The notes under the pieces were generated by a model, which worked only from the letters and a program-made list of their open reading frames with translations, was not told the origin of the DNA and did not search any database. The translations under genes were made by a program, and so were the position numbers. Shown in pieces: positions 12,533-33,402 of a stretch of 62,042 bases of DNA (the stretch's first letter is position 1; each line of letters begins with the position of its first letter). Where the stretch lies: assembly GCA_035411585.1 (NCBI GenBank), contig DAONTI010000028.1, positions 1-62,042 on the forward strand, read 5' to 3'. This stretch comes from Verrucomicrobiota bacterium. Lineage in GTDB: Bacteria > Verrucomicrobiota > Verrucomicrobiia > Limisphaerales > MWDV01.

Positions 12533-12553
12533 GATAAGGAGTGGTTAATGGGT

Positions 12554-13114: not shown

Positions 13115-13413
13115 AAAACCTCAGTCCGTTGTTTCGCGATAATTAAAGCTCATTCCCGCCCGCTGGCAAGTCCGAATGCGGGCCGGACCACCGCTCCGCC
13201 ACGGGCCGGGGACCGGCGGCGGGCGCGGAATCGAGCGCCGGGGGCGCGGGATGCGTGGTGCCCGTTTCATGCTGGGTTAAGCTAAGCAGAAGTTGCGCGG
13301 TTGCGCAGTTACAAAGCCACGGAAAAATTGTAAGCACCCAATCGCGCCGGGACGGAGCAGCGGCAATCAATCTCTCCGGCCGCCGCCTGCGCGCCGGCTG
13401 GCAATGCCAAACG

Positions 13414-13842: not shown

Positions 13843-13857
13843 GGGGGCTCTCCGGGG

Positions 13858-15150: not shown

Positions 15151-15395
15151 GATGTGCGTCAAGGCAACCGGGTGGCGGACGGCGGGCGGAACAACGTCGC
15201 CGGCACCGGAGAGAATTGATTCAGGAACCGGGGGCCGCCAACCGCAAGCGCGGACGCCATAACCGCGCCCTGATCGAAGGGCGCCTGGCGTGTTCCAGCG
15301 GTCCCTGTCCGGGGGGCCAGACTGAAAAAAACACCCGCGCTGCGTGCCCCATTTTTCATCGGTCAACCGCAGGATTTCGCAAATTCATCCGGCAA

Positions 15396-17359: not shown

Positions 17360-17435
17360 CGTTATCGTCCGTTGAGCGTTGCCGAACCCGAGCCGGGCCG
17401 CCGCTGGGCGTCGAGGAGGATCAAGCGCGGAGGAT

Positions 17436-18272: not shown

Positions 18273-19374
18273 CGGAGGCCCCCGGCGGCGCGCCGGTGGT
18301 TTCGTCGCGGGGGTGGTGATTTCGGTTAAGGCCGTGGCGCAGCCATTGGCCGAGCGGTTTCAGCGGCCCTTCCGGGGCCAGGGAGATGATGAGAATCAGA
18401 ATGGCGCCAAATACCGCGTTGTCGTAGCTCCCAAAGAAACCGCGTAAAGACAGATAATTCAAAATCACGCTCATTGCGGTCACGCCCCAGAGACTGGCCA
18501 TGCCGCCCGCCGCCGCAAGCGCCAGGTAACGCACCGACTTGAGCGCGCCCGCTTCGGACGGGCTGATGCTGCCGGTGTAATGCGTGAAGAACACGCCGGC
18601 CAAGGCCGCCAGCAGCGCGCTGAGCACGAAGGCGCCCAGCTTGTAAGCCGCGGTGTTGATGCCCATGGCGTTGGCGGCGGTTTCCCGGTCATGAATGGCT
18701 TGCAACGCCCGCCCCACCCGTGAGCGGATCAGATTTCGCAGCAACACCAACGTCAGGAGCAACAAACCGCAGGCGATATAGTAATTCTCCACGCGCAACG
18801 TCCGCCGACCGGAAACAGTCAACCCGAAGCCTAAAGGCCATTCCGGCACTCCGGTGATGCCGTCGGAGGCGCCCAGCTGGGCGGTGCCCACTACAATTTT
18901 GCTGACAATGAGACCGAACCCGAGCGTCGCCATGGCCAGGTAATGCCCTTTCAACCGCAGCGCCGGATAGCCAATGAGATGCGCAACCACAAAGGTCAAC
19001 AAGAGCGCCACCACCACAGCGGCCCACGGAGAGACGCTCAAAGCGGTGCCCCCGTATAAATCCGAGTGCTCGATCAGAACGCGGGCTTGTTTCAAGCCGG
19101 TGGCCCACGCTGGCTCCGGGAGCGGCCCGAAATCGTGCGTGGTCAGGAACGCCGAAGTATAGCCGCCAATCGCGAAAAACGCCGCATGCCCCAGCGACAC
19201 CTGACCCGCGTGCCCCGTCACCAGGCAAAGCCCCAGCACGACCAGGGCGTAATACAAGGCCATTGTCAGTTGCGTCAGGCAATACTCCATCCCCGCCGCG
19301 CGCAATACGAGCTGCGTCACCACCGCCAGGACGGCGAAGGTGGCGAACGGCGTGTTGCACTGAAGAAAACGCAT
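18250..19374 (-). CDS. livM: LIV-type ABC transporter permease (LivM type)
   Basis: The polytopic membrane protein has permease topology and sits between livH and livG. Confidence 0.8.
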   Translation of the reverse strand: MRFLQCNTPFATFAVLAVVTQLVLRAAGMEYCLTQLTMALYYALVVLGLCLVTGHAGQVSLGHAAFFAIGGYTSAFLTTHDFGPLPEPAWATGLKQARVLIEHSDLYGGTALSVSPWAAVVVALLLTFVVAHLIGYPALRLKGHYLAMATLGFGLIVSKIVVGTAQLGASDGITGVPEWPLGFGLTVSGRRTLRVENYYIACGLLLLTLVLLRNLIRSRVGRALQAIHDRETAANAMGINTAAYKLGAFVLSALLAALAGVFFTHYTGSISPSEAGALKSVRYLALAAAGGMASLWGVTAMSVILNYLSLRGFFGSYDNAVFGAILILIISLAPEGPLKPLGQWLRHGLNRNHHPRDETTGAPPGASDGAPRIH

Positions 19375-19389
19375 GGCCTCAAGTATGGT

Positions 19390-20286
19390 TCAATGCTCCC
19401 GCACCGCTTCCCCGCCGGGCCGGCCCAATAATCCGTGCGGCCGGACAAACAACACCAGCAACAGCACGACAAATGCGGCCACATCGTTGAACGCGGCCGG
19501 CAACCGGCTGACAGCGAACGCTTCCAAAATCCCCACTGTCAAGCCGCCGATCACCCCGCCCATCGGGTTGCCCAGTCCGCCGAGGATTGCTGCGGCGAAC
19601 CCTTTGATGGCCAGTGGTGCGCCCATTTCGTAATGGGTCATGGTGATGGGCGAAATCACGCATCCGGCCAATCCGCCCAGGGCCGCGCTTAAACCGAAGG
19701 AGAGGGTGCGCATGTTGGGAATATTGATGCCCGCCAGCATGGCCGCTTCGGGATTTGAAGCACAGGCGCGCATGGCCCGGCCCTGCAACGTGTACCGCAG
19801 GAAGATATGCAGCAGGACCACCGACACCGCAATGGCGCCGAGCACCCACAAGACCTGCGGGGAAATGGCCGCGCCGAAGAACTTGAGGGACGACACCTCG
19901 TTGCCGGTGAAATAGGGCAGGGAACGGACTTTTTCGTCCCAGATATGCAACGCGATTTCCTGGATCACAATGGAGAGGCCGATGGTGATGATGATCATGT
20001 GCAGAATCGAATGATGCCGCAGCTTGCGGAAAAAGGTGATCTCCAGCAGACACCCCACCGCGCTGACGACGATCACAGCCGCGCCCACGGCCACGACCAA
20101 GGGCAGCCCCAGTTGCGCCAGCATGATGGCCACCATGCCCCCGAGCATGACAAACTCGCCCTGGGCAAAGTTCAAGACGCCGGTCGCGCTGTAAATCAGG
20201 TTGAACCCAATGGCGACCACGGCGTAGATGCTGCCCTTGGTGATGCCCGAGAGCAGATATTGCAAGGCCATGCTGCCGTTTTCCAT
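19390..20286 (-). CDS. livH: LIV-type ABC transporter permease (LivH type)
   Basis: The 298-aa polytopic permease lies directly downstream of the substrate-binding protein gene. Confidence 0.8.
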   Translation of the reverse strand: MENGSMALQYLLSGITKGSIYAVVAIGFNLIYSATGVLNFAQGEFVMLGGMVAIMLAQLGLPLVVAVGAAVIVVSAVGCLLEITFFRKLRHHSILHMIIITIGLSIVIQEIALHIWDEKVRSLPYFTGNEVSSLKFFGAAISPQVLWVLGAIAVSVVLLHIFLRYTLQGRAMRACASNPEAAMLAGINIPNMRTLSFGLSAALGGLAGCVISPITMTHYEMGAPLAIKGFAAAILGGLGNPMGGVIGGLTVGILEAFAVSRLPAAFNDVAAFVVLLLVLFVRPHGLLGRPGGEAVREH

Positions 20287-20368
20287 GAGGTCTTCAGTGT
20301 GCGAAAAAGCCCCGGACAGTCAACCCGCCGGGGCTTGGTGATCCTACCGACTGCAATACCATCCCCCG

Positions 20369-21520
20369 TTAGGGCTGGTAGATGGTAAATTTACCGTCCT
20401 TCACGACCAGCATCAAAAAGGCGTCCAACGTCAGCCCGGTGTGGTCGGTGGGCGAGAAATTGAAGACGCCGGTGACGCCGGCGTAGTTGCTCAGATGCTC
20501 GATGGCCTCGCGCACTTTACTCCGATCCGGCTCGCCCGCCCGCCGCAGGCCTTCAAGGACAATCATGAGCGCGTCATGGGCATAACCGCCAAACGCGCTG
20601 ACGTCTTCTTGATAGCGGGATTCATACGCCTGCCGGTAAGCGGTCAGGACCTTTTTCTGTGGATGCGTGTCGGGAAGTTGTTCGCACACCATCAAATGCC
20701 CCAAGGGGAACAGAATGCCTTCCGCTGCCACACCGGCTTGCTCGACATATTTCAGGTTGCCAAACCCGTGGCTCTGGAAGAGCGGCACAGTCATGCCGAG
20801 TTGTCTCATGTTCTTGGCCACGATGGATTGCGCGGGAACGATGGACCAATTGACCACGGCCTGCACGCCCGGCGTGCCTTTGATCTTGGTCAGAATATCG
20901 GTCAAATCGGTGGCGGCCTTGTCGTACACCTCGTTCGCCAGAATCTCAATCCCCTCCACCTTGGCCAGGTCTTCGAGTTGTTTTTTGCCGGCGGCGCCGA
21001 ATCCGTCGTTGCCGGTTACCACGGCGACCTTGGTGATGCCTTGGTCCTTCATCGTGCGGTAAATCCAAGTGGCCGCCTGACTGTCCTTTTGCGGAGTCTT
21101 AAAGACGTACCGGGCCACCGGGTTCACAATCACTTCCGCTGCGGCGCAGGAGACGAGGATCATCTGGTTTTGTTCGCAGAGATCCTTGATGGCCATGGTC
21201 TCGCCGCTGGTGGACGGACCAATAATGGCCAGCACCTTGTCCTCCTCGATCAACTGTTTGGCAAACGACACGGCCTTCTCGGGATTGCCGCCGCTGTCCT
21301 TGGCGATAAACTCAATCTTCCGCCCGTTGATGCCGCCCTGGGCGTTGATTTGATCCACGAGCATGCGCGCCGTTTTTTCCTCCGGCGCCCCCAAAAAGGA
21401 AGCGGGGCCGGTCACGGAAAAGATCGCGCCGATTTTGACGGTTTCACTGGGAGGCCGGGAACAGCCCCAGAAGAGGGCCAGCCCGCAAAGCCCCACGGCT
21501 AGGAGAGCGCTGTGTTTCAT
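20369..21520 (-). CDS. Periplasmic substrate-binding protein of the LIV ABC importer (LivJ/K-like)
   Basis: An N-terminal signal/lipobox (LALFWGCS) precedes a type-I periplasmic binding fold (IGAIFSVTGPASFLG...). It is the first gene of the transporter operon. Confidence 0.8.
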   Translation of the reverse strand: MKHSALLAVGLCGLALFWGCSRPPSETVKIGAIFSVTGPASFLGAPEEKTARMLVDQINAQGGINGRKIEFIAKDSGGNPEKAVSFAKQLIEEDKVLAIIGPSTSGETMAIKDLCEQNQMILVSCAAAEVIVNPVARYVFKTPQKDSQAATWIYRTMKDQGITKVAVVTGNDGFGAAGKKQLEDLAKVEGIEILANEVYDKAATDLTDILTKIKGTPGVQAVVNWSIVPAQSIVAKNMRQLGMTVPLFQSHGFGNLKYVEQAGVAAEGILFPLGHLMVCEQLPDTHPQKKVLTAYRQAYESRYQEDVSAFGGYAHDALMIVLEGLRRAGEPDRSKVREAIEHLSNYAGVTGVFNFSPTDHTGLTLDAFLMLVVKDGKFTIYQP

Positions 21521-21624
21521 GATGATCCTTTCAGGTTAAGCCAGCCATCAACCGGTCCGCCTCCCGGCCCCCGCCGGCGACGGGGAGGAACACGCCGCCG
21601 CCTGCGGGCCCGGGATTTCGGCAG

Positions 21625-23142
21625 TTAGAACGTGAACATGATTTCGGGACGAATGAACACCATCAGATCGCGCTGATTGTAGTAATCGCCCTGCCAGATG
21701 AATTCCCCCCACAGGTGAACGTTGCAATGCTTGTTGAACTGATGCTTGAGCACCGTTTGCAGATAATGACCGCGGAAATGGCCGTCGCGGCTGAAACGCG
21801 GCGTGGCCATCACCCGGGTGGACGTGTCTTCGGGCGCGAACAGCGCATTGTAGGTCGCGCTGAAGCTCATGCCTTTCATGGGATTGAAACTCCAACTGGG
21901 ACCTATCCGCCAGAGGTTGTTGATCTGGGCGACTTTGCCGCTGGTCTCCGCCGCATACGAATAAATGTAAAGCTCACTCCACCGCGGCCAGCGGCCCCAT
22001 AACAGATCGAACATCTCATCCTTGCCGGTCTTTGGATCGTCACCCGAGAGGTATTCGGTCGCCAGGCTGAGTTGGTTGTTCAGGCTGTCCTTGAACTGGT
22101 AGGTGAGCTTGGCCTTGCCGCCGTACGCACTGATGTCGCGGCGGTGGTTGGCGGCGCCGGCGGGGAATTTCACGGTCGGATCGTTTTTGCTGCCAAACTG
22201 GTAAGCCCCCTCCACGGAGTATAGCCAATGCTCCGCCGGAGTCCCGGTGATCTTGCCGCCCAGCGTGTAGATGTCCGCGTAATCGCCGGGCCGGGTTTTT
22301 GCCCCCCCGGCCTTCAGGGTTTCCGGCTCGTCCGCCTTGTAAATGAAATAGCCGTCAATCGTGGTGTTCTTGATGGATTTGTTGGAGACATAAAAAACCA
22401 CGCCCTGCTCGTTTTGCTCGGTCACGTTGTAATCCGTGCCCCGGTACTTGGGTGAATCGGAATAACGTGTCCGGCCCAGCGTGGGAAACATCCCGTCCGG
22501 AAGCGCCGTCTGGTAGATGTAAATCAGGTCAAACTTCGTCTTGATGTCCTGCGCGTCATAGGTCAGGCGGATGCTGTCAAAGTAAAATGTCCACGAACCA
22601 TCCCCCGGCGTGCCATCGGAAATCAGCCACCAATCATAGAAATCGCCGAACATGATGTCCTGCCGCCCCACTGTGAGGGTCAACGGTTGGCCGCCAAGAT
22701 TGCTCCATTTGAAGTTCAGATTGTCAAAAATGCCATAGCGCCATTCCATGCCTTCGCGCGGGGTGCCGAGATTGGGTTTTCCGTAAGGTCCAAACCCGGC
22801 CTTTTTGGTCCAATAACGCGGCTCGGCGGAGAGACGGGCGTTGATGCTGATGTCCTCCGATAATTTGGCGGTGGCCCACAAGCGGCCGCGAAAACGCACC
22901 ACGTTCTGTTCAGAATAAGGCACGGACTCATCCAAGCTGACCACGCTATCCAGATACTCGTCGCGCACCCGCAGATCCGCGCCCCAAGTCAGCCAGTCCA
23001 CCGGCTTTTTCATGGCATCCGCCCATTTGTCAAAACCGCTGGGCGGGGGCGGACTGGTTGTCGCCGGAGTTTGAGCGGTCAGCGGAGAGACAGCTGTTGC
23101 CAGCACCGCCAGACAGATCAGGACTTTGGAATTCATGCGCAT
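21625..23142 (-). CDS. Outer-membrane beta-barrel protein (alginate-export/AlgE-like porin family, tentative)
   Basis: A signal peptide (MRMNSKVLICLAVLATAVSPLTA), alternating amphipathic beta-strand character throughout, and a C-terminal aromatic residue (…IMFTF) indicate an OM barrel. Confidence 0.55.
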   Translation of the reverse strand: MRMNSKVLICLAVLATAVSPLTAQTPATTSPPPPSGFDKWADAMKKPVDWLTWGADLRVRDEYLDSVVSLDESVPYSEQNVVRFRGRLWATAKLSEDISINARLSAEPRYWTKKAGFGPYGKPNLGTPREGMEWRYGIFDNLNFKWSNLGGQPLTLTVGRQDIMFGDFYDWWLISDGTPGDGSWTFYFDSIRLTYDAQDIKTKFDLIYIYQTALPDGMFPTLGRTRYSDSPKYRGTDYNVTEQNEQGVVFYVSNKSIKNTTIDGYFIYKADEPETLKAGGAKTRPGDYADIYTLGGKITGTPAEHWLYSVEGAYQFGSKNDPTVKFPAGAANHRRDISAYGGKAKLTYQFKDSLNNQLSLATEYLSGDDPKTGKDEMFDLLWGRWPRWSELYIYSYAAETSGKVAQINNLWRIGPSWSFNPMKGMSFSATYNALFAPEDTSTRVMATPRFSRDGHFRGHYLQTVLKHQFNKHCNVHLWGEFIWQGDYYNQRDLMVFIRPEIMFTF

Positions 23143-23641
23143 GTTGTTATTTGAGGTTCACTATCCATCCACAGCAGCCTTGCGTCACCGGCCCGCCATC
23201 ATCGCGAGGCTCCGGTTCGCCGGGACCGCTTGACCACTCCAAGCCATCCGGGCCGCCAACCGTGGCCATCCTAAAAAATCACCCCCACCTGTCCAGTCCG
23301 GAGAGTAATTTTTGACAGAATTTAGTATAAGAAATGAAAAACATGAAATCTGCTGATTTACAGAAAAACGCGCCGTGTCAAACTTTACCCGGCTGGATTA
23401 CTCCCTACGACCGTTCGGGAAAACCTCGTGAAAATTGGGCTTTTTGCGATTTTTTGCCGGATGAAATCGCTCTTCATTATGGCGGGACGCCGCGCTGATT
23501 TCAGGTTGGGCAGGGTGAGATCACCCATAAATTTGATTGGATGGCCGGGATAAAAGCGGCTTGTCTTGGAAAAAGTTTTTTGTTCGACTGGTTCGCGGAA
23601 CTTCCCACCGCCGCAGGCGCGGAGGGTCAGCGCAAACAAGC

Positions 23642-25261
23642 ATGTCCACTGAAAAACGACAACTCCTCAGCGGCGATGAAGCCATCGCCCTTGCCGCGCG
23701 CGACGCCGGCGTGGCACTTGGGGCCGGCTATCCCGGCACTCCCTCCACGGAAATCCTGGAACGCTTCACGGCCCTCGGCGGGCGCGGCCAATGGTCGCCC
23801 AATGAAAAGGTCGCGTTGGAGGTCGCCTTGGGGGCGGCATTCACCGGCGCCCGGGCCATGGCCACGATGAAACACGTTGGCCTGAACGTCGCCGCGGATC
23901 CACTGTTCACCGCGGCCTACACCGGTGTGGTGGGCGGGCTGGTGATCATTTCCGCGGATGATCCGGGCATGGCCTCCAGCCAGAACGAGCAGGACAATCG
24001 CCGCTACGCGGTGGCGGCGGGGGTGCCGCTGTTGGAACCGTCCGATTCCCAGGAAGCCTACGATTTTGTTTTCGCCGCGCTGGAGATTTCGGAGCGCTGG
24101 CGCATCCCGGTCATTCTCCGTCCCACCACCCGCGTGTGTCACAGCTATACCTTGGTGCAACCGCGCGGGTCGAACGGAGCGTCGGTCACCCCCAAGTTCG
24201 AGCGCGATATCCGCACGCTGGTCATGATCCCGGCGTACGCGCGCCCCGCGCACCGGCGGTTGCGGCAAAAGCTGGCCGAGATTCAGGAGTGGAACGAGAG
24301 CGCGCCGCTGAATCAAATTGTGCCCGGCGACAAATCCCTCGGAATCATCACGAGCGGCATTTCGTTCATGCACGTGCGCGAGGCGGCCCCCCACGCGAGC
24401 GTGTTGAAGCTGGGGTTCACCTATCCGCTGCCCTTGCGCAAAATTGCTGCGTTCGCCAAAAGTGTGGACCGCTGTCTGGTCGTGGAGGAAGGTGATCCCT
24501 ATCTGGTGGACGCCATCCGGGCGGCGGGCATCCCCGTCGAAGGCAAACCGGAAATGTACCGCTTCGGCGAACTCGATGTGCCCCGCGTACGGCGCATCCT
24601 GAATAACGACACCAGCCCCGAACCCGTCAAGCCGCCGGGCAAACCACCGCAACTGTGCGACGCCTGCCAGTACCGGGTGGTGTTTGAGAGCCTGCGCCAG
24701 CGGGGCTGCATCGTGGCGGGGGACATTGGTTGTTATACCCTTGGCGTGTTGCAGCCGTTCGAGGTGATTGACACCTGCGTTTGCATGGGCGCCAGCTTGG
24801 GCGTGGGTCTGGGCATGCGGCACGTCCTGCCGTCCGACCAGGCGCGCCGGGTGGTCAGTGTGATCGGGGACAGCACCTTCATGCACAGCGGCATCACCGG
24901 TCTGGTGGAGATGGTGTATAACCCGCCGCCCGAGGGGCATGTATTGATCATTCTCGACAACGCCACCACGGCGATGACCGGGCACCAGGAGCATCCCGGC
25001 ACGGGCCGCTCGCTGGCGCATGAGCCCACGAACAAGATTGTGATGGAAGACCTCGCGCGGTCGTTGGGCATTCAACGCGTCCACGTCGTCGAACCGCGGA
25101 TCGGATCGGGGGAATTTGAACGGGTGCTCGATGAGTGCCTCGCCAGCCGGGAACTCTGCGTGATCATCGCGCGCCGTCCGTGCATTCTGATTGTCAAACA
25201 ATTGCGCGAATACGAGAAACGCGCCTGCCAAATCCAAGGAAGCTCATGTCCAACCGCCTGA
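23642..25261 (+). CDS. iorA: Indolepyruvate:ferredoxin oxidoreductase alpha subunit
   Basis: N-terminal TPP-enzyme motifs (LSGDEAIALAARDAGV...GYPGTPSTEI) and a Cys cluster (CDACQYRVVFE...GDIGCYTLG) match IorA. I set the start at MSTEKRQ (23642). Confidence 0.85.
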   Translation: MSTEKRQLLSGDEAIALAARDAGVALGAGYPGTPSTEILERFTALGGRGQWSPNEKVALEVALGAAFTGARAMATMKHVGLNVAADPLFTAAYTGVVGGLVIISADDPGMASSQNEQDNRRYAVAAGVPLLEPSDSQEAYDFVFAALEISERWRIPVILRPTTRVCHSYTLVQPRGSNGASVTPKFERDIRTLVMIPAYARPAHRRLRQKLAEIQEWNESAPLNQIVPGDKSLGIITSGISFMHVREAAPHASVLKLGFTYPLPLRKIAAFAKSVDRCLVVEEGDPYLVDAIRAAGIPVEGKPEMYRFGELDVPRVRRILNNDTSPEPVKPPGKPPQLCDACQYRVVFESLRQRGCIVAGDIGCYTLGVLQPFEVIDTCVCMGASLGVGLGMRHVLPSDQARRVVSVIGDSTFMHSGITGLVEMVYNPPPEGHVLIILDNATTAMTGHQEHPGTGRSLAHEPTNKIVMEDLARSLGIQRVHVVEPRIGSGEFERVLDECLASRELCVIIARRPCILIVKQLREYEKRACQIQGSSCPTA

Positions 25262-25731
25262 CCAATGTGGTGGTCGCCGGCCTCGGCGGCCAAGGAGTGC
25301 TCAAAGCCTCGGATATTCTGGCCGACGTGGCCGTCCGGGCCGGCTTTGAGGTGAAGAAAAGCGAGATCAAAGGCATGAGCCAGCGCGGCGGGTCGGTCAG
25401 CAGCGACGTGCGGTTTGGCGACGCCGTCTTCAGCCCGATGGTGTCGCCGGGCGAAGCGGATTATCTGCTCGTCCTGGAAGCCACTCAAGTGACGCCGAAC
25501 CAACATTACCTCAAGGCCGGCGGCACGTTGATCACCCCGGACGTCATCAACCCGGACCAATTGCCGAACAAAAAGGCGCTCAACGTGGCGCTGCTGGGCG
25601 CCCTGAGCAAACATTTGCCGTTGCCGGAAAACGACTGGCTCGAAGTTCTGCGCCAGGCGTTTCCCCCGGCCTTTTTCGCGCACAACCGGGAAGCGTTCCG
25701 TTTGGGGCGTGCCGCCGTTTCCCAATCCTGA
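25246..25731 (+). CDS. iorB: Indolepyruvate:ferredoxin oxidoreductase beta subunit
   Basis: VVAGLGGQGVLKASDILA is the IorB/POR-gamma GGQG motif. The start MSNRLTNV overlaps the end of iorA, and AGGAAG lies upstream. Confidence 0.8.
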   Translation: MSNRLTNVVVAGLGGQGVLKASDILADVAVRAGFEVKKSEIKGMSQRGGSVSSDVRFGDAVFSPMVSPGEADYLLVLEATQVTPNQHYLKAGGTLITPDVINPDQLPNKKALNVALLGALSKHLPLPENDWLEVLRQAFPPAFFAHNREAFRLGRAAVSQS

Positions 25732-25746
25732 AAACTTGTTACCCGC

Positions 25747-27072
25747 ATGAGCAAAAACCACGACATTCCGCCGATGCATCCCGCCAGCGCCATGGATTTT
25801 CTGCCGCTCGCGCAACTGCGGGACGTGCAATTCATCCGCCTGCGCGACATGGTCCAGCGCGCCTATGATCATGTGGCGCTGTTCCGGCAGCGGATGGATG
25901 AACGCAAGCTCAAGCCCGCCGATCTGCGCTCCATGGATGACATCGTGAAACTGCCGTTCACGGTGAAGTCCGATTTGCGCGATGCGTATCCGTTCGGCTT
26001 GCTGGCCAGTCCCTTGCAGGATGTGGTGCGTTTCCACGCCTCCAGCGGCACGACCGGCAAGCCCATCGTCGTCGGTTACACCCGGGAGGATATTCAGGAT
26101 TGGACCCAGGCGATGGTCCGCAGCTTCGCGGCGTGCGGGGTGCATGCCGGGGATGTCATTCAGAACGCCTACGGCTACGGCCTGTTCACCGGCGGCCTGG
26201 GGGCGCACTACGGCGCGGAAGGCATCGGGGCGAGCGTGGTGCCGATTTCCGGCGGCAACACCGAACGCCAGATCATGCTCATGAAGGATTTTGGCGTGAC
26301 GGTGATTTGTTGCACGCCGAGCTATTTCCTGCACCTCATGGAACGGGCGGTGGAATCGGGGGTAAACCTGAAGGATCTGCCCCTGCGCACGGGCGTCTTC
26401 GGCGCCGAACCGTGGACCGAAGGCATGCGGGAACGCATTGAAGCCGGCACTGCGATCCGGGCTTACGACATCTACGGCCTGACGGAAATCGTCGGTCCCG
26501 GTGTGGCAATGGAATGTGTGCATCAGACCGGCCCGCACATTTTTGAAGACCTGTTTTACCCGGAAATCGTTGATCCCGAGACCCTCGAACCGCTGCCCGA
26601 CGGCACGGAAGGCGAACTGGTGCTCACCACCTTGTGCAAGCGCGCGATGCCCATGATCCGGTATCGCACGCGGGACATCACCGCCGTCACCTCGGCGAAG
26701 TGCCCCTGCGGGCGCACGCTCCGGCGCATCTGCCGGATTGGCCGGCGCAGCGACGACATGCTCATCATCCGCGGCGTCAACCTGTTTCCGTCGCAAATCG
26801 AAGCCGCGTTACTGCGGGTGGAGGGCACCCTGCCGCATTACCAAATCATTGTGGACCGCCAGAAGGGGCTCGACACGTTGGAGGTGCAGGTGGAGGTCAC
26901 CAACGAGGCGTTCAGCGACACGGTCGGCGCTCTGGAGCAATTGCAAAAACGGCTGGCCCATTCCATCGAAAGCATCACCGGCCTGCGCCCCGCGGTGAAA
27001 CTCGTCGCCCCGCGCACGCTCCAGCGCAGCGAAGGCAAGGCCAAACGAGTCATGGACAAACGGCTGATGTAA
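25747..27072 (+). CDS. paaK: Phenylacetate-CoA ligase family aryl-acid CoA ligase
   Basis: The PaaK N-domain, FHASSGTTGKPIVVGYT and C-terminal blocks are present. It is a paralog of the 13858..15150 gene. Confidence 0.85.
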   Translation: MSKNHDIPPMHPASAMDFLPLAQLRDVQFIRLRDMVQRAYDHVALFRQRMDERKLKPADLRSMDDIVKLPFTVKSDLRDAYPFGLLASPLQDVVRFHASSGTTGKPIVVGYTREDIQDWTQAMVRSFAACGVHAGDVIQNAYGYGLFTGGLGAHYGAEGIGASVVPISGGNTERQIMLMKDFGVTVICCTPSYFLHLMERAVESGVNLKDLPLRTGVFGAEPWTEGMRERIEAGTAIRAYDIYGLTEIVGPGVAMECVHQTGPHIFEDLFYPEIVDPETLEPLPDGTEGELVLTTLCKRAMPMIRYRTRDITAVTSAKCPCGRTLRRICRIGRRSDDMLIIRGVNLFPSQIEAALLRVEGTLPHYQIIVDRQKGLDTLEVQVEVTNEAFSDTVGALEQLQKRLAHSIESITGLRPAVKLVAPRTLQRSEGKAKRVMDKRLM

Positions 27073-27103
27073 CCGGCGATTTTCCACCCCAAGGCATACG
27101 CGC

Positions 27104-27544
27104 ATGAAACTCAAACAACTCTCCGTCTTTCTCGAAAACAAACCGGGCGCGCTCAGTGCTCCCTGTCGTCTGCTGGCCAAGGCCGGCATCAACATTCAAA
27201 CCTTCGCCCTCGCCGACACCCGGGAGTTTGGGATCCTACGGCTCGTGGTTGAAGACCCGGACCGCGCCCGGCGATTGCTCATCCGCAACGGCTTCGCCGT
27301 GAAGCTCACGGAGGTCGTTGCCTTGGAAGTGCCCGATGTCCCCGGAGGATTGGCGGCCATTCTGGATGCGCTGGACGGCTCCGGCATCAACGTCGAATAC
27401 GCCTATGCCTTCACCACCAAGCATCAGGGGCACGGTTTGCTGGTGTTCCGGTTTGATGATCCCGACAGCGCCATCAAGATCCTCAAGAGCCACAAGATCA
27501 GCGCCGTGGACAGCGAGGAATTGTCCAAACGTCTGAAAGGCTGA
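27104..27544 (+). CDS. Tandem ACT-domain protein
   Basis: Two ACT units are present (LSVFLENKPGALSAPCRLLAKAGINIQTF; ALEVPDVPGGLAAILDALDGSGINV). It is a paralog of 13414..13842. Confidence 0.75.
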   Translation: MKLKQLSVFLENKPGALSAPCRLLAKAGINIQTFALADTREFGILRLVVEDPDRARRLLIRNGFAVKLTEVVALEVPDVPGGLAAILDALDGSGINVEYAYAFTTKHQGHGLLVFRFDDPDSAIKILKSHKISAVDSEELSKRLKG

Positions 27545-27619
27545 ATCCCGGAACGCTTGCTTGCTTCTTACGCTGGCGCCCCGCCGTTCACCGCGAACGG
27601 GGCGCCGACCGTTTCCCCC

Positions 27620-28033
27620 ATGAAAACCATCAAAGACTATTTCAAAAAGGACCAGTTTGCCGCCCACAACAACATTGAACTGGTGGACGCCGCGGACGGC
27701 CGGGCCCGAGCCCGCATGACCCTGCAACCCCATCACTTGAACGCCTTGGGCACGGTCCAAGGAGGCGCGCTCTTTACCCTGGCGGATTTCTGCTTCGCCG
27801 CCGCCTGCAACTCGCACGGCACCGTGGCGGTGGCCATTGACGCCAACATCACTTTCATGAAAGGCATTGCCACCGGCACGCTCCACGCCGAGGCGCGCGA
27901 GATCGCCAAAAATTTCAAACTCGGCAGTTACGCCGTGGAAGTCCGCAGTGACGCGGGAGAGTTGATCGCCCAATTTCAAGGACTGGCCTACCGCAAGAAG
28001 GACGCCCTGCCGTTCATCAAAGCACCGGCGTAA
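27620..28033 (+). CDS. Hotdog-fold acyl-CoA thioesterase (PaaI/4HBT-like)
   Basis: GTVQGGALFTLADFCFAAA is the PaaI-type catalytic region. The size is about 137 aa. I set the start at MKTIKDY. Confidence 0.7.
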   Translation: MKTIKDYFKKDQFAAHNNIELVDAADGRARARMTLQPHHLNALGTVQGGALFTLADFCFAAACNSHGTVAVAIDANITFMKGIATGTLHAEAREIAKNFKLGSYAVEVRSDAGELIAQFQGLAYRKKDALPFIKAPA

Positions 28034-28093
28034 CGGCCCGGCACGCCGACTCGCGGCTCGACGGCCGCCGCGCCGCCCGCTACCGTTTCCGTC

Positions 28094-29353
28094 ATGGAAC
28101 TTCGCTGGATCAGTCTGCTGGGACTGGTGACCATGCTGGCGGCTGCGTGGGCGATCTCCCGCCATCGCCGCCTGTTTCCCTGGCGCACGGTGGGGTGGGG
28201 GTTGGGGCTGCAATTCACCTTCGCGCTGCTCATTCTCAAAACCTCGTGGGGCGCCGCGGTGTTTTCTTTTGCGGGCGCGGTGATCCGCAAGCTCCTCGAA
28301 TTCGCCAACGAAGGCTGCCAGTTTGTGTTCGGCCCACTCGCCGCGGATGCCGCGCTGCAACGCGTGTTCCCGGAGCAGCCGCTGGTGTTCGCCGTCCTCG
28401 TGACCGGCACCATCATCCTCGTCTCGGCGCTTGCGTCCCTGTTTTATCACTGGGGGGTGCTCCAAAAAGTGGTCTATGCGATGGCTTGGGTGATGCGCCG
28501 GGCCATGGGCACGAGCGGCAGCGAAACGCTGGCGGCGGCCGCCAATATCTTCATGGGCCAGACCGAGGCGCCGTTGCTGGTGAAACCTTACCTCGCCCGC
28601 ATGACCCGCAGCGAACTGCTTTGCCTGATGACCGGAGGCATGGCGACCATCGCCGGCGGCGTGGCGGCGGTGTACACCAAAATGGGCGTGGACGCCGGCC
28701 ACCCTGATATTGCCGGTCACTTGTTGACGGCCTCAGTGCTCAACGCCCCCGCCGCGCTGCTTATTTCCAAAATCATGCTCCCGGAAACCGAGGTGAGCGA
28801 AACCGCCGGACGCGCCCCGGCGAACCCGCCGCGCACCAGCGTCAACAGCCTGGACGCCCTTTGTCGGGGCGCCGGCGACGGCATGCAACTCTCGATCAAT
28901 GTTCTGGCCATGCTGATTGCGTTTGTGGCCGTGGTGGCACTGGTCAATTTTCTGCTCACCGGATCCCAGGAATGGCTCGGTGTAACGACGCCGATCACCC
29001 TGCAAAAGCTGTTGGGCTGGCTCAACGCCCCTTTTGCCTGGCTCATGGGAATCCCGGCGGCGGACTGCGTGACCATTGGCGGCATTCTGGGGGAGCGCAT
29101 TGTGCTCAACGAGTTCATGGGCTACCTCGCGCTGACGCATCCGGACACCGTGGTGGCGGAACGCAGCTTTGTCATCGCCACCTATGCGCTATGCGGTTTC
29201 GCGAACTTTTCCAGCATCGCCATTCAGATTGGCGGCATCGGCTCCCTGGCCCCCGAACGCCGCGGCGACATGGCCCGGCTGGGAGGACGCGCGCTGATCG
29301 GCGGCTTGCTGGCCACCTATCTAACCGCCACTATCGCGGGCATTTTATTGTAA
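28094..29353 (+). CDS. nupC: Concentrative nucleoside transporter (NupC/CNT family)
   Basis: The blocks GSETLAAAANIFMGQTEAP and MTGGMATIAGG are conserved in the CNT family. It is a 419-aa polytopic protein. Confidence 0.8.
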   Translation: MELRWISLLGLVTMLAAAWAISRHRRLFPWRTVGWGLGLQFTFALLILKTSWGAAVFSFAGAVIRKLLEFANEGCQFVFGPLAADAALQRVFPEQPLVFAVLVTGTIILVSALASLFYHWGVLQKVVYAMAWVMRRAMGTSGSETLAAAANIFMGQTEAPLLVKPYLARMTRSELLCLMTGGMATIAGGVAAVYTKMGVDAGHPDIAGHLLTASVLNAPAALLISKIMLPETEVSETAGRAPANPPRTSVNSLDALCRGAGDGMQLSINVLAMLIAFVAVVALVNFLLTGSQEWLGVTTPITLQKLLGWLNAPFAWLMGIPAADCVTIGGILGERIVLNEFMGYLALTHPDTVVAERSFVIATYALCGFANFSSIAIQIGGIGSLAPERRGDMARLGGRALIGGLLATYLTATIAGILL

Positions 29354-29518
29354 GAACACGGCGGCAAGCCCTCGGTCGCGCTCGTCGCGCTCGTTCCCAC
29401 CCCGCATTTTTTCTCCGCCGTTTTTGCCTCCGACGGAACCGGCGCGCCCCGAGGCACGCTGCGGGCTGAAAAAACACGTGGACATGGCCCCCAGACGCGC
29501 TACAGTGCGTCCCAGCTT

Positions 29519-29797
29519 ATGAACAAGAATCTCGCCATCCCGATCTTGATCACGGTGTTGCTGGTCAGTGCCTTGAGCGCGCTAGCGCTGACCTATTTCA
29601 ACATCCAATATTCGCGCAAGGGCCGCTCGCTCCAGTTTCAGGCGGCCGCCATGAACAACACCCGTATGGTCTTGGACTCGCTCGCCAAGGACACGTTGAT
29701 TTACAGCCAGACCAACCGCGCGATTGATCCGATCCTGATTTCGCTGGGGCTCAAGTCGAGCAACGCCCCGGCCGCCACCCGACCCGCCACCCGTTGA
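29519..29797 (+). CDS. Small hypothetical membrane/secreted protein
   Basis: A single N-terminal hydrophobic helix is present, with no recognisable motif. Confidence 0.35.
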   Translation: MNKNLAIPILITVLLVSALSALALTYFNIQYSRKGRSLQFQAAAMNNTRMVLDSLAKDTLIYSQTNRAIDPILISLGLKSSNAPAATRPATR

Positions 29798-30208
29798 TTG
29801 GCCATGAATAATACTCCCGACCTCCTCTCCCCTGTTGTCACGCCGGATTCCAACCAGCTCGCCCAGGCGGTGGAAACGCTGCGCCGGCAATTTCAAACCA
29901 CGTTGATCATCCTCATCATCCTGAGTGGCGCGATTAATCTTTATCTGTTGCGGCAGTTCACCACCCTGCGCAAAGAGATTGCCGTGGTCGAACCGCAGGT
30001 GAAAAAAATGGCGAGCGATTTCGAGCGGGTGACCCGGCCGTTGATGAATTCGTTCCTCAAACAACTCACCGACTACGCCCAAACGCATCCGGATTTCCGG
30101 CCGCTGCTCGCCAAATACAATATCCAAAGCACGCCGGCGAGCGCGGGGACAGCCACACCCATTCCCGCCCCGGCCACACCACCGCCCGCGATCCCGGCCC
30201 CGAAGTAA
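29798..30208 (+). CDS. Hypothetical membrane protein
   Basis: It has one TM helix (TTLIILIILSGAINLYLL). It starts at TTG or the ATG 6 nt later, directly abutting the previous ORF. Confidence 0.4.
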   Translation: MAMNNTPDLLSPVVTPDSNQLAQAVETLRRQFQTTLIILIILSGAINLYLLRQFTTLRKEIAVVEPQVKKMASDFERVTRPLMNSFLKQLTDYAQTHPDFRPLLAKYNIQSTPASAGTATPIPAPATPPPAIPAPK

Positions 30209-30420
30209 ATAGGCGGCGAGCGGGCGTCATCCTTGCATTCGCATTGGTTGTCGTCCGTAGCGGCGACAAACAGGCGTGATGCGGTTTGCCCCATTGCCTT
30301 TTGTAAAGGGGCTGCAGCAAGGAAATCGGTAACGCGCGGTCTGCAGTTAAACTGGGGATGCGCCTGTCCGTGCTGGTTTCAGGGTTGAGATTGGGAGAGT
30401 TCCCCAGTTAGGCTGCGGCC

Positions 30421-31299
30421 ATGAAAATTCTATTGGTCGCACTGGCGTTGCTGGCCCAAGTGGCTGCCGCACAACAACGGCAAGCCGCCATTCCGCTCTG
30501 GGCCGGAGGTGCACCCGGGGCGTTGGGGAATTCCACGAATGACATTCCCACCCTCACTCCTTATCTGCCCGATCCGGCCATCGCCACCGGTGCGGCCATG
30601 GTGATTTGTCCCGGGGGTGCCTACGTGCATCTGGCCGAACTGGAAGGGGATCATTACGCCCGCTGGCTCAACGAGCAGGGCATCGCCGGTTTCGTGCTCC
30701 AGTACCGCCTCGCCTCCGCCGGGTACCGGCATCCGGCAATGTTGCAGGATGCGACCCGGGCCGTGCGCACGGTGCGCGCCCGGGCGGCCGAGTGGCAATT
30801 GGATCCCCAACGCGTCGGGATCATCGGCTCCTCCGCGGGCGGCCATCTCGCCTCAACCTTACTCACCCACTTCGATGCCGGCCAGCCGGACGCCGCCGAT
30901 CCCATTGAACGCCACAGCTCACGACCCGATCTCGGCATTCTCTGTTATCCCGTGATCAACCTGGACAGCGAGTTCACCCATCAAGGATCCAAACGCAATC
31001 TGCTCGGGACGAATCCACCGCCCGCCTTGGCGCGGGAACTCTCCAGCGATTTACAGGTCACCAAAGACACCCCGCCGTGTTTCGTGTGGCACCGGGGCGA
31101 AGATCAAGGTGTACTGGTGGAAAACTCGCTGCTGTTCGCCGCCGCCCTGCGCCGGCACGGCGTCCCGTTTGACCTGCACGTCTATGAACGGGGCCCGCAC
31201 GGCCTCGGCTTGGGGACAACGGAATGGAATCCGGCGCGCCGCCATCCGTGGACACGCGACTGTGAGTATTGGCTAAAGCAGCGCGGGTTTGGCCGGTAA
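30421..31299 (+). CDS. Secreted alpha/beta-hydrolase (esterase/lipase, Aes-like)
   Basis: A signal peptide is followed by VICPGGAY (an oxyanion-hole HGG-like region), the nucleophile elbow GSSAGG, and a C-terminal His. Confidence 0.75.
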   Translation: MKILLVALALLAQVAAAQQRQAAIPLWAGGAPGALGNSTNDIPTLTPYLPDPAIATGAAMVICPGGAYVHLAELEGDHYARWLNEQGIAGFVLQYRLASAGYRHPAMLQDATRAVRTVRARAAEWQLDPQRVGIIGSSAGGHLASTLLTHFDAGQPDAADPIERHSSRPDLGILCYPVINLDSEFTHQGSKRNLLGTNPPPALARELSSDLQVTKDTPPCFVWHRGEDQGVLVENSLLFAAALRRHGVPFDLHVYERGPHGLGLGTTEWNPARRHPWTRDCEYWLKQRGFGR

Positions 31300-31377: not shown

Positions 31378-33402
31378 TCAGTTGACCGCCGCCGCGGTGT
31401 TCAGCGCCGCCCGTTTTTTGCGCAGCCCCGCCACGGTGCGGGCCATGGTCTGATTTAATTCCTCCAACCGGGGCGGCTTGCTGACCAGCGCATCCACCTT
31501 GGACGTCTGCTTTTCGTTGCCGCCATCCAGCATCGTGCCCCACCCCGTCAACATGATGACGGCCGTTTCCGGCGAAGCCACTTTGATGCGTTCGGCTACT
31601 TGCCGGCCGTCCATGTGGGGCATCCCTAGATCCGTGATCACCACGTCAAATGGCCGGCCGCGCTGGCGGGCGACGAAAAACGTGTCCAATCCCGCCTGGC
31701 CCCCGTCGGCCGTCTCGACTTCGTGGTGGCAAAAACTCAACAATTGCTGCAGCAGTTCCCGCAGGAGCGGCTCGTCATCAATGCACAACACGCGCAAGGA
31801 AATCTGCGCCGGCGTGTCGGTCGGGGCCGGGGTCGTTTCCACGGCGGGCGGAGTGCGGAGCGGGAAGATCAAACGCATGGTGGTGCCTTTCCCCAATTTG
31901 CTTTCCACCTCAATGCTCCCCTGATGCCGCTCCAAGGTGCCGTAAACCATCGCGAGTCCCAATCCCGCGCCGCCGCTCTGTTTCTTGGTGGAGAAAAACG
32001 GCTCCAAACACCGCTGCCGCGTGGCTTCGCTCATACCGGTGCCATTGTCGCGGACTTCCAACGCAATGTGATTGGGAGCCTCTTTGCCGGACGGGTCCTG
32101 CGAATTGAAGGGATGGGTACGGATCTGAATCCGCCCGCCCTCGGGGAGCGCGTCCACGGCATTTAAGACCAGGTTGGTCAGGGCCTCTCGGATTTCTGAT
32201 GCGTTGCCATACAACGCGGGCATGTCAGAAGCGAGGACAGTTTCGATGTTCACCGCCAGGCCGTGGCTTTGCGGAATGTCATGCCAGCCGGGGCGGGTCA
32301 GGTCCACTACTTGTTGCACCAGGTTGTTCAGGTTCACCAACTGCAGGCTCTCGTCATCCTCCCGCCGCCGATAGAATTCCCCCATCCGGGCCACGATATG
32401 CTCAATGTCGCCGGCCGCCGTGCGGATGTGCTCCAGATTTTTGCGGGACTCGGGCTTAAGTTGCGGCTCTTTTTTCAACAATAGATCCGCGAAAGCCACG
32501 ATGGGCGACAGCGCGTTGTTGAGGTCATGCGCCACGCCGCTGGCCATCTGTCCCAGCGCGCGCAACCGCTCCTGCTGCACCACGGATTGCTGGGTCTCGC
32601 GCAGGCTGTCGTATGCCTTCTGCAAATCGTCGCGCAACCGCGCCGCTTGAAACAGACTGGCGCATTGCGCCTCGGTCGAGATGATTTTGGATTCCAGTTC
32701 GCGTTTTTCCGTGTTCACCGCCTGAATCTGTTGGGTCACCTGCTCGGTGAGCTGGCGGGCCTCCTCCAACACCAACACGATCATGCTCACCGCAATGAAC
32801 AGTTGCAGCACTGCCGAAAACAGAAAACCGGCGACCACCAGCGTATCAAAGGCTTGGGAAAACGGATAAGTGACCAGGTACACGCCCCACAACGCAAATC
32901 CCAGACACAACATGCCCACCCCGACAAATTTGCGCCGCTGGCGGTGCTGATAGAAGCTCATCGCCGCAAAGAAACTCGCCATCCCAATCAGCAGAAAGAT
33001 GGGCAACTGAATCAACAGCGTGCTCTGAATGACTTGGGCGCCCACGTAACTCCACGTCAGCAGGAACGCCATGAACAGGCCGAACAAGATCTGGCGGGTG
33101 TGAATTTCCAGAAACGACAAACTCCCCCAAAGCAGAAATACGGCGGAGACAGAGACGCACCATTGCCGGACAATGTCCAGGAAGGAACGGGGGGGCACGT
33201 CGGGGAAGCTGATGCCGATCGTCAACCAAAGCGCGTAGAATAGCCACGCCGCCGTCCAAATGGTGAAATACTTCCGTTTCGTGTAGCGATTGAGGTAGTG
33301 AAAAAGGCCCACCAACACCCACACGCTCAACAGCGACACCAGCAGGGCCGCGCGCAGGTATTCCCGCGGGAACACCAGTTCAAATCCGGGTAGTTCAGGC
33401 AT
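31378..33402 (-). CDS. Hybrid sensor histidine kinase (7-TM sensor - HisKA - HATPase - REC)
   Basis: About 7 N-terminal TM helices precede the H-box GQMASGVAHDLNNALSPI. The HATPase N, G1 and G2 boxes follow (…DNGTGM…GGAGLGLAMV), and the C-terminal receiver is LRVLCIDDEP...VITDLGMPHMDG. Confidence 0.85.
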   Translation of the reverse strand: MPELPGFELVFPREYLRAALLVSLLSVWVLVGLFHYLNRYTKRKYFTIWTAAWLFYALWLTIGISFPDVPPRSFLDIVRQWCVSVSAVFLLWGSLSFLEIHTRQILFGLFMAFLLTWSYVGAQVIQSTLLIQLPIFLLIGMASFFAAMSFYQHRQRRKFVGVGMLCLGFALWGVYLVTYPFSQAFDTLVVAGFLFSAVLQLFIAVSMIVLVLEEARQLTEQVTQQIQAVNTEKRELESKIISTEAQCASLFQAARLRDDLQKAYDSLRETQQSVVQQERLRALGQMASGVAHDLNNALSPIVAFADLLLKKEPQLKPESRKNLEHIRTAAGDIEHIVARMGEFYRRREDDESLQLVNLNNLVQQVVDLTRPGWHDIPQSHGLAVNIETVLASDMPALYGNASEIREALTNLVLNAVDALPEGGRIQIRTHPFNSQDPSGKEAPNHIALEVRDNGTGMSEATRQRCLEPFFSTKKQSGGAGLGLAMVYGTLERHQGSIEVESKLGKGTTMRLIFPLRTPPAVETTPAPTDTPAQISLRVLCIDDEPLLRELLQQLLSFCHHEVETADGGQAGLDTFFVARQRGRPFDVVITDLGMPHMDGRQVAERIKVASPETAVIMLTGWGTMLDGGNEKQTSKVDALVSKPPRLEELNQTMARTVAGLRKKRAALNTAAAVN

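Follow-up and report, generated by a model that had tools for sequence, protein, structure and literature searches.

The chemistry by which indolepyruvate:ferredoxin oxidoreductase (IOR) links arylacetyl-coenzyme A (arylacetyl-CoA) and arylpyruvate is established, and the reaction is reversible. In Methanococcus maripaludis, aryl acids feed aromatic amino acid synthesis via IOR (Porat 2004, as cited in PMC4162585), and iorA2/iorB2 (MMP0713-0714) encode a two-subunit IOR beside a PaaK-type ligase. Here, we present an analysis of a locus with the same core genes and the same proposed chemistry in a 62,042-nucleotide stretch of DNA from a Verrucomicrobiota bacterium (assembly GCA_035411585.1, contig DAONTI010000028.1, positions 1 to 62,042; referred to as the window). 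In contrast to the M. maripaludis system, this locus also includes genes for a porin, for an ABC importer, and for a second ligase, besides those for two stand-alone proteins with ACT domains, a thioesterase, and a pseudo-ligase, and its direction is a prediction. With moderate confidence, we conclude that positions 13414-28033 form one unit that would salvage exogenous arylacetic acids toward aromatic amino acids, i.e., in the reductive direction.

Two further systems invite comparison. In Bacteroides thetaiotaomicron, BT0430-0429 (IorAB/PPFOR) is likewise a short two-subunit IOR, and a Bacteroides ligase of known structure (4R1L) is nearest to the second ligase of our locus; however, BT0430 works oxidatively in vivo and produces 4-hydroxyphenylacetate (4-HPA). 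To our knowledge, the BT0430-0429 operon includes neither a transporter nor an ACT gene. The aerobic phenylacetate catabolon of Burkholderia cenocepacia and Escherichia coli has in common with our locus the P-loop, the A10 lysine, and the N-terminal region of the first ligase, all of which align, as well as an Asp residue shared between the thioesterase and PaaI. In contrast to the catabolon, the ligase of the window is coupled to an IOR and an ACT protein, and neither the paaABCDE epoxidase nor other ring-opening genes were found within the window. The module itself is of a known kind. We found no description of a cassette of ligase and ACT protein or of a pseudo-ligase linked to a transporter, and both appear to be undescribed. 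What is new is that uptake, activation, and carboxylation are recognized as one locus, that the ligase-ACT cassette spans phyla and has a member of solved structure, and that a pseudo-ligase is bound to the transporter.

The analysis covered positions 23642-28033 and the wider window, together with public gene calls from six contigs with an identical PaaK1; the gene models are the same in all six. Identical or near-identical copies of the locus come from anaerobic-digester metagenome contigs and from two NCBI metagenome-assembled genomes, and the named sources of homologues of ACT1 and PaaK3 are mostly Verrucomicrobia/Verrucomicrobiota. The GC content of the window is 61%. The features are as follows:

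iorA, 23642-25261, + strand: 539 aa, fused alpha/beta-type IOR subunit (Pfam POR_N and TPP_enzyme_C; TIGR03336)
iorB, 25246-25731, + strand: 161 aa, gamma-like IOR subunit (Pfam POR)
paaK1, 25747-27072, + strand: 441 aa, predicted arylacetate-CoA ligase (AMP-forming), canonical PaaK clade (AMP-binding and AMP-binding_C_2)
ACT1, 27104-27544, + strand: 146 aa, stand-alone tandem-ACT protein (PF19571, ACT_8), candidate ligand-sensing partner of PaaK1
PaaI-like hotdog acyl-CoA thioesterase gene, 27620-28033, + strand: 137 aa (Pfam 4HBT)
CNT/NupC-family transporter gene (nucleoside-type), 28094-29353, + strand (Pfam Nucleos_tra2_N, Gate, and Nucleos_tra2_C)
Divergent spacer between the porin gene (- strand) and iorA (+ strand), 23143-23641: 499 bp, 52% GC
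Outer-membrane beta-barrel porin gene, AlgE/Alginate_exp family, 21625-23142, - strand (PF13372): first gene of the divergent operon
Periplasmic solute-binding protein (SBP) gene, 20369-21520, - strand (Peripla_BP_6)
ABC importer core, 17436-20286, - strand (PF02653, BPD_transp_2 permease, twice; PF00005 and PF12399)
livH-like permease gene, 19390-20286, - strand
livM-like permease gene, 18250-19374, - strand
livG-like ATPase gene, 17436-18272, - strand (PF00005 and PF12399)
livF-like ABC ATPase gene, 16640-17359, - strand (PF00005): 4-nt overlap with the PaaK3 gene
PaaK3 gene, degenerate PaaK paralogue, 15396-16643, - strand: 415 aa, last gene of the ABC transporter unit, predicted non-catalytic
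paaK2, 13858-15150, - strand: 430 aa, second predicted AMP-forming ligase, clade of 4R1L (Bacteroides), 245-nt gap before the gene
ACT2, 13414-13842, - strand: 142 aa, second stand-alone tandem-ACT protein (PF19571), 15 nt after paaK2

An earlier note on this DNA had proposed a five-gene IorA-IorB-PaaK-ACT-PaaI set at 23642-28033 and a second PaaK-ACT pair at 13414-15150. Both are present, the former on the + strand with short gaps and the latter on the - strand. Because iorA and iorB overlap by 16 nt and the subsequent gaps are only 15, 31, and 75 nt, we read the IOR genes as an operon. The second pair had been assigned to a separate operon; it is indeed transcribed divergently, but rather than being unrelated, it forms the tail of a porin-ABC-PaaK3-PaaK2-ACT2 operon that begins 499 bp from iorA. 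Since this operon shares the upstream region of iorA, we treat 13414-28033 as one locus of ~15 kb. The idea that two ligase/ACT sets flank the IOR did not hold either; rather, the porin and the aromatic-acid-type ABC importer, which had been missed, link the two halves. Gene orders in other genomes support that the two halves form a single unit. In one locus (L008), all genes are co-directional in the order porin-paaK2-ACT2-iorA-iorB-paaK1-ACT1-paaI; many Nitrospirota and Desulfobacterota have the arrangement iorA-iorB-paaK-ACT-SBP-livH-livM-livG-livF-paaK'; and porin homologues adjoin PaaK2-ACT2 or iorA in L007, L008, L018, L024, and others.

IorA matched the IOR_alpha model TIGR03336 with 549.5 bits (E 8e-165; model positions 2-552 of 595), which is below the curated cut-off of 650.9, and the best NCBIfam matches of IorB were all to IOR subunit beta (best 162 bits; cut-off 237). 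For both proteins, the next non-IOR models (VOR, KOR, and POR) reached at most 65 bits. The architecture is that of a two-subunit enzyme, in which a single chain combines POR_N with TPP_enzyme_C and a separate 161-aa chain carries POR; a fused E+F architecture has been described for the IOR cluster (PMC13285125). IorA has the thiamine pyrophosphate (TPP) motif GDS-x27-DN and four clustered Cys residues (Cys339/342/356/364), which are candidate ligands of a proximal [4Fe-4S] cluster; a search for an IOR structure to compare with gave none. IorA of the window and of most Verrucomicrobiota and Planctomycetota loci (PVC group) is of a short form of 530-540 aa, and a long form of ~580-615 aa with a C-terminal extension (~60 aa) occurs in Nitrospirota and Desulfobacterota (e.g., L027, L029, and L035); the short form showed no ferredoxin motif of the type CxxCxxCxxxCP. 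By best family match, IorAB is an indolepyruvate-type 2-oxoacid:ferredoxin oxidoreductase, an activity that we predict from the sequence. It is at this level of best family match that the gene identities given earlier (IOR, PaaK, and PaaI families) held up.

Of the three PaaK-family proteins that had been noted, PaaK1 and PaaK2 have intact catalytic motifs, whereas the third (15396-16643), PaaK3, is a degenerate and predicted non-catalytic paralogue. PaaK1 and PaaK2 scored 554 and 473 bits with the PaaK model TIGR02155, the cut-off of which (646.3) neither reached, and 139 and 182 bits with the coenzyme F390 synthetase model TIGR03335; the PaaK scores are, thus, three- to fourfold higher, and an identity as F390 synthetases (139-182 versus 470-550 bits) was ruled out. 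Both also matched PF14535 (AMP-binding_C_2; 114 and 91 bits) and have the short architecture of ~430-440 aa. Among solved structures, PaaK1 is closest to 2Y4O (447 bits) and 2Y27 (442 bits), and it is 49% identical to both crystallized phenylacetate-CoA ligases, PaaK1 as well as PaaK2, of B. cenocepacia; the closest solved relative of PaaK2 of the window is the Bacteroides ligase 4R1L (481 bits; 51% identity). The A3 P-loop SSGTTGKP and the C-terminal GKAKR are intact in both. In B. cenocepacia PaaK1, the phosphates of ATP are bound by Ser94/Thr96/Thr97 of the P-loop; the A10 lysine is a residue that aryl-CoA ligases conserve (PMC8388817).

When the 111 PaaK-family sequences of the fetched loci were placed in a neighbor-joining tree, PaaK1 fell into the clade of the B. 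cenocepacia enzymes (2Y27/2Y4O) and PaaK2 into a separate clade with 4R1L. The grouping with F390 synthetases that the earlier note had allowed for was not found; instead, both ligases group with crystallized phenylacetate-CoA ligases. Ligases encoded behind the ACT gene in Planctomycetota make up a third clade, and those encoded behind livF a fourth. The identity between PaaK1 and PaaK2 is 48% and that between ACT1 and ACT2 33%, and each ligase has orthologues in other phyla. Because of these identities and because each has its own cross-phylum clade, we consider the two pairs, which the earlier note had described as a partial duplication 10 kb upstream, old paralogues and not the outcome of a recent event. 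In Planctomycetota, Kiritimatiellales, and some Verrucomicrobiota, the order iorA-iorB-paaK-ACT-paaK' was observed, with an extra intact PaaK' that lacks its own ACT gene; in nine of the fetched loci (L011, L013, L015, L017, L019, L021, L023, L026, and L033), this PaaK' belongs to a separate clade and lies ~100-700 nt past the ACT gene.

The two ligases also differ in a segment that may bear on their substrates. In the segment AYGYGLFTGGLGAH (SYGYGLFTGGLGAH), which presumably lines the acyl pocket in the B. cenocepacia structures and which we take only as a lead, PaaK1 is identical to B. cenocepacia PaaK1. At the segment YGYGLFTGGLGAH, PaaK2 reads MTYGMFTGALVTH and departs from both PaaK1 and 4R1L. 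This difference suggests that PaaK1 and PaaK2 prefer different substrates, with the assignment of the segment to the pocket as our assumption.

The importer is most likely of the aromatic-acid type, with arylacetates as its probable substrates. The SBP gave its best PDB match to 7YLT (E 7e-37), followed by 3SG0, 3UK0, 4DQD, 3UKJ, 3TX6, and 4JB0, and aromatic-acid binders outranked Leu/Ile/Val-binding proteins among its matches. 7YLT is the indole-3-acetic acid-specific SBP AdgB/IadK2 of Variovorax, and 4JB0 is CouP of Rhodopseudomonas palustris with ferulate, the CouP group being phenylpropanoid binders; IadK2/CouP SBPs belong to subcluster B-III, which is described as aromatic-acid specific. 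Like CouPSTU and IadK2/AdgB, the best solved relatives of its SBP, the system of the window is a Liv-type ABC system, and those systems carry aromatic carboxylates; however, the SBP identity is modest, and the transporter of the window has an extra gene for a PaaK-like pseudo-ligase. The thioesterase matched PF03061 (4HBT) with 38 bits and TIGR02286 with 92.1 bits (cut-off 118.9), and its best PDB matches are PaaI of E. coli and Thermus. Within a conserved LAD motif, its Asp56 lies opposite residue 61 of the E. coli enzyme (1PSU); we take Asp61 of E. coli PaaI to be catalytic. A PaaI-like gene accompanies the module in five Verrucomicrobiota loci (L007, L008, L018, L024, and L056).

Taken as a pathway, the AlgE-type porin and the ABC importer with its aromatic-acid-type SBP would bring in arylacetates, i.e., phenylacetate, 4-hydroxyphenylacetate, and indole-3-acetate. 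The two AMP-forming PaaK ligases, with different acyl pockets, would then make arylacetyl-CoA at the cost of ATP, the two-subunit IOR would reductively carboxylate arylacetyl-CoA to arylpyruvates using reduced ferredoxin and CO2, and aminotransferases encoded elsewhere would convert these to Phe, Tyr, and Trp. The ACT partners would serve as feedback sensors that halt the spending of ATP and CoA when aromatic amino acids are plentiful, and the PaaI-like thioesterase would hydrolyze stalled or wrong arylacetyl-CoA as a safety valve that recycles CoA. We favor uptake and assimilation because a porin, an aromatic-acid-type importer, and two ATP-consuming AMP-forming ligases accompany the IOR. By comparison, the characterized oxidative arylpyruvate pathways of fermenters pair the oxidoreductase with a phosphate acyltransferase (Pta) and an acyl kinase or with an ADP-forming ligase, thereby conserving ATP (PMC13285125), and these partners of the characterized clusters are not present at the locus.

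Several observations weigh against salvage. The B. thetaiotaomicron homologue BT0430-0429 is genetically required for 4-HPA production and, thus, oxidative in vivo, and the thioesterase of the operon also suits an oxidative route from arylacetyl-CoA to arylacetate. Presumably, a PaaK-type ligase, the one crystallized as 4R1L, lies beside BT0430-0429 as well, in which case a ligase neighborhood alone leaves the direction unfixed. When three pocket residues of IadK2 (Phe168, Trp172, and Arg199) were aligned with the SBP, using a numbering offset derived by hand and leaving Phe308 and Tyr311 unmapped, they corresponded to Gly, Phe, and Lys, so that none of the three is identical and the support at residue level is weak. 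All NCBIfam equivalog matches across the locus score below their curated cut-offs; the family placement is, therefore, firm, but the models do not certify exact function or substrate. Finally, substrates of the PaaK family also include isophthalate, 2-hydroxyisobutyrate, and naphthoate.

The first of these points, together with the reversibility of the IOR reaction, bears on a fermentative alternative, in which aromatic amino acids would be imported and transaminated, the IOR would decarboxylate the resulting arylpyruvates oxidatively to arylacetyl-CoA while reducing ferredoxin, and arylacetate would be released by the PaaI-like thioesterase or by PaaK running in reverse (AMP + PPi to ATP); the ACT proteins would then sense the amino acid supply and switch the route on. 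By Pfam, the ABC system belongs to the branched-chain amino acid (HAAT) transporter superfamily, which would suit such an import, and an operon-encoded thioesterase would provide the release. However, the SBP is nearest to aromatic-acid binders rather than to Leu/Ile/Val binders, release by the thioesterase would waste the thioester energy, and an excreted product would hardly call for two or three ligase genes of the activation type together with a porin and an importer. Since, in addition, Pta and acyl kinase or ADP-forming ligases are missing from the locus, we consider an oxidative role unlikely.

The sub-threshold scores and the breadth of the PaaK family, as well as the reading MTYGMFTGALVTH in place of YGYGLFTGGLGAH in PaaK2, bear on a different alternative, in which the architecture is the same but the substrates are others, such as branched-chain acids or further aromatic acids from the digester (phenylpropionate, benzoate derivatives, or isophthalate-like ones), which would be assimilated or channeled into catabolism encoded elsewhere. 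VOR-like enzymes can take aromatic substrates, and the reverse is also the case. Against this, IorA and IorB fit the IOR models far better than those for VOR, KOR, and POR (549 versus at most 65 bits), the thioesterase is closest to PaaI, and no downstream catabolic genes lie in the window. Moreover, PaaK1 shares 49% of its residues with true phenylacetate-CoA ligases, and in AYGYGLFTGGLGAH it does not differ from B. cenocepacia PaaK1. On balance, we regard such substrates as rather improbable and arylacetates as the better fit.

The ACT proteins are the second subject of this analysis. Both matched PF19571 (ACT_8, "ACT domain pair"; 98.8 bits for ACT1 and 64.6 bits for ACT2; cut-off 23.5). 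ACT1 aligned over its residues 2-141 with PDB 2F06 (E 1.5e-29; 41% identity over the full length). Because of this identity and the about 50% identity of the ligases to PaaK structures, the folds of ACT1 and of the ligases are uncontroversial. Weak matches of ACT1 and ACT2 to PF22629 (ACT_AHAS_ss) and to structures of small subunits of acetohydroxyacid synthase (AHAS) were also found (E about 1e-3 for the PDB matches). The glycine loops ENKxG and DxPGGL in the two ACT repeats are conserved at a level of at least 90% in 87 homologues. A glycine-containing beta1-alpha1 loop is the usual ligand site of ACT domains.

Scanning a genome collection with an ACT alignment returned 588 relatives, of which the 80 best loci were analyzed; these come from Verrucomicrobiota, Planctomycetota, Kiritimatiellales, Desulfobacterota, and Nitrospirota as well as from Moorella, Pelotomaculum, Myxococcales, Chloroflexota, and Rokubacteria. 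Of the 71 loci that extend far enough upstream, 69 have a PaaK-family gene immediately 5' of the ACT gene and co-directional with it, and the median gap between the two genes is about 30 nt. By contrast, only 38 of 64 loci have IorA, and 17 of 51 have a transporter of the Liv type. Because the adjacency to PaaK holds irrespective of IOR or transporter, we conclude that the ACT protein belongs to the ligase and not to the IOR; gene order, thus, strongly backs the association of the stand-alone ACT protein with the ligase that had been suggested earlier. Also, the ACT type co-varies with the ligase clade, i.e., ACT1-type proteins follow PaaK1-type ligases and ACT2-type proteins follow PaaK2-type ligases, the latter in L008, L018, L024, and L034. 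The protein of structure 2F06 is BT0572 of Bacteroides, a structural-genomics "conserved hypothetical protein" that resembles ACT1 and is encoded directly behind a 432-aa ligase with 56% identity to PaaK1; unlike the pair of the window, the Bacteroides pair lies apart from IOR and transporter genes, amid otherwise unrelated neighbors.

We propose that the ACT protein is a regulatory partner of the ligase; that the two are in contact, and which ligand is sensed, we infer from this comparative analysis. Each ACT protein would bind its own ligase and relay the binding of a small ligand in the manner of the AHAS small subunit. The ligand would most likely be an amino acid end product, and its binding would throttle the activation reaction that consumes ATP and CoA. 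As in the case of IlvN/IlvH, a separate small ACT polypeptide is encoded beside its candidate catalytic partner; however, the sequence similarity to the AHAS small subunit is weak, and at our locus an ANL-family ligase would take the role of catalytic partner. The AHAS system, in which a stand-alone ACT chain places its catalytic partner under end-product control, is the nearest mechanistic precedent. No paper linking ACT domains with phenylacetate-CoA ligase was found in the open-access literature, which fits the earlier statement that the ACT protein is biochemically uncharacterized.

One result counts against a physical partnership. The ACT family comprises 2072 clusters (50% identity) at E <= 1e-10, and nearly all of the best 150 have a length of 130-150 aa; no PaaK-ACT fusion was found among the best 120 close homologues or the best 150 of the 2072 clusters, in which the maximal length is 352 aa, and so there is no Rosetta-stone support for contact between ACT protein and ligase. 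The ACT proteins might, instead, be independent small-molecule binders, e.g., buffering a metabolite or regulating the IOR or some other enzyme, that merely share the operon. In the single published test of such a case, in S. aromaticivorans (0374/0375), a small co-induced protein beside a PaaK-like ligase, which may or may not be homologous to ACT_8, proved dispensable for ligase activity. Independence, however, sits poorly with an adjacency to PaaK that is kept across many phyla, with or without IOR or transporter, at a median gap of ~30 nt; with the co-variation of ACT type and ligase clade; and with a Bacteroides ligase-ACT pair that stands alone amid unrelated genes. We, therefore, hold it to be very unlikely and retain the regulatory partnership as our proposal.

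PaaK3 differs from both intact ligases throughout its catalytic motifs. It has no match to Pfam AMP-binding (PF00501). Its P-loop reads TLGPQGKP in place of SSGTTGKP (Ser94 to Leu, Thr96 to Pro, and Thr97 to Gln), so that the three phosphate-binding hydroxyls are gone. YGLTE is replaced by FGLGE, and the hinge RYRTRD by RYQTRV, with loss of the hinge Asp. The A8 segment GRSDDMLIIRGVN is replaced by PRLDGRLRVKETP, which changes the GRxDD motif; finally, 12 residues are deleted, and PaaK3 lacks the A10 lysine. PaaK3 is a homologue of PaaK but no plausible ligase, and judged by these motifs, it is predicted to be catalytically dead. It belongs to a family of more than 120 clusters at 65-87% identity, of which the named ones are nearly all from Verrucomicrobia/Verrucomicrobiota; this family has its own invariant motif at the position of the P-loop, and none of its members matched PF00501.

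A PaaK3 homologue is the last gene of an SBP-livHMGF operon in L087 (10001-11185), L088 (10001-11203), and L089 (3674-4882). The overlap with livF is 4 nt in the window, L087, and L088, and in L089 there is a gap of 58 nt. No ligase, ACT, or IOR genes were found near the homologue in these three loci. Because PaaK3 is kept behind livF even without ligase, ACT, and IOR genes nearby, we conclude that it goes with the transporter. Outside this lineage, livF is followed in other phyla by a gene for a ligase that is either intact or, again, degenerate (L034, L064, and L079). It is a reasonable inference that a transporter-coupled ligase was turned into a non-catalytic accessory in the Verrucomicrobiota lineage, and PaaK3, which would be co-translated with the ABC ATPases, is probably a non-enzymatic accessory of the transporter.

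Going one step further, we tentatively suggest as a possible extension that PaaK-ACT is a widespread two-protein enzyme and, as such, the first ANL-family acyl-CoA ligase with a dedicated, separate ACT subunit, through which aromatic amino acids would exert feedback on the salvage of aryl acids, and that a dead PaaK became fixed on the aromatic-acid importer of Verrucomicrobiota, possibly as a relic of transport-coupled CoA trapping that now gates or regulates uptake.

The regulatory regions of the locus were also searched. Against Rfam (12500-30500; E <= 1), there was one chance-level match, with no riboswitch or leader in the 499-bp spacer; scans for sigma-70 promoters and intrinsic terminators gave no signal above shuffled sequences; and the repeats in the spacer are short and unremarkable. 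Two words are shared between upstream regions and are commoner than in most shuffles. The 12-mer TTGCCGGATGAA occurs 5' of paaK2 (15384-15395, - strand) and 5' of iorA (23454-23465, + strand), in the same orientation to the genes, with a third copy within a coding region (1182-1193). The 13-mer CGGTTGGCGGCCC occurs 5' of paaK2 (15232-15244, - strand) and 5' of the porin gene (23250-23262, - strand). Neither word was found in the loci of other species, and the 12-mer is also missing in strains L001 and L005; we, therefore, do not claim these words as operators. Between the PaaK3 gene and paaK2 lies a non-coding gap of 245 nt (15151-15395; 64% GC), and the equivalent gap in L034 is 27 nt. The gap makes a promoter of its own possible, and paaK2-ACT2 may be transcribed from it. 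A longer open reading frame (ORF) call for paaK2 (13858-15366) has an N-terminal extension without homology.

Around the locus, the CNT/NupC transporter gene begins 60 nt 3' of the thioesterase gene on the same strand. Because no such transporter gene lies beside the module in the loci of other species, its membership in the operon is doubtful. Directly 3' of ACT2, a flotillin/SPFH gene and an ORF for a small membrane protein without Pfam match (11009-13114, - strand) are probably a separate unit from the ACT2 operon. A giant ORF of ~2,490 aa (33433-40899, - strand), for which the public gene calls record no Pfam match, varies in length between strains (2452-2684 aa across the six contigs) and adjoins a gene for a hybrid histidine kinase/response regulator (31378-33402). 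No aromatic-metabolism genes were found in the remaining window, which instead has housekeeping genes unrelated to the locus.

A pseudo-ligase tied to an ABC transporter is a clean case of an enzyme paralogue that has been retained after the loss of its catalytic residues. A function of the ACT proteins as ligase partners would extend to a large family that is annotated as "hypothetical" or "amino acid-binding", including proteins of human-gut Bacteroides. When protein is broken down anaerobically in digesters, the rumen, and the gut, arylacetates are among the major products, and they are abundant in anaerobic digesters. If the locus works in the reductive direction, uncultured Verrucomicrobiota and many other anaerobes would draw on waste acids to form the three costliest amino acids, and this would shape cross-feeding in the communities of digesters, the rumen, and the gut.

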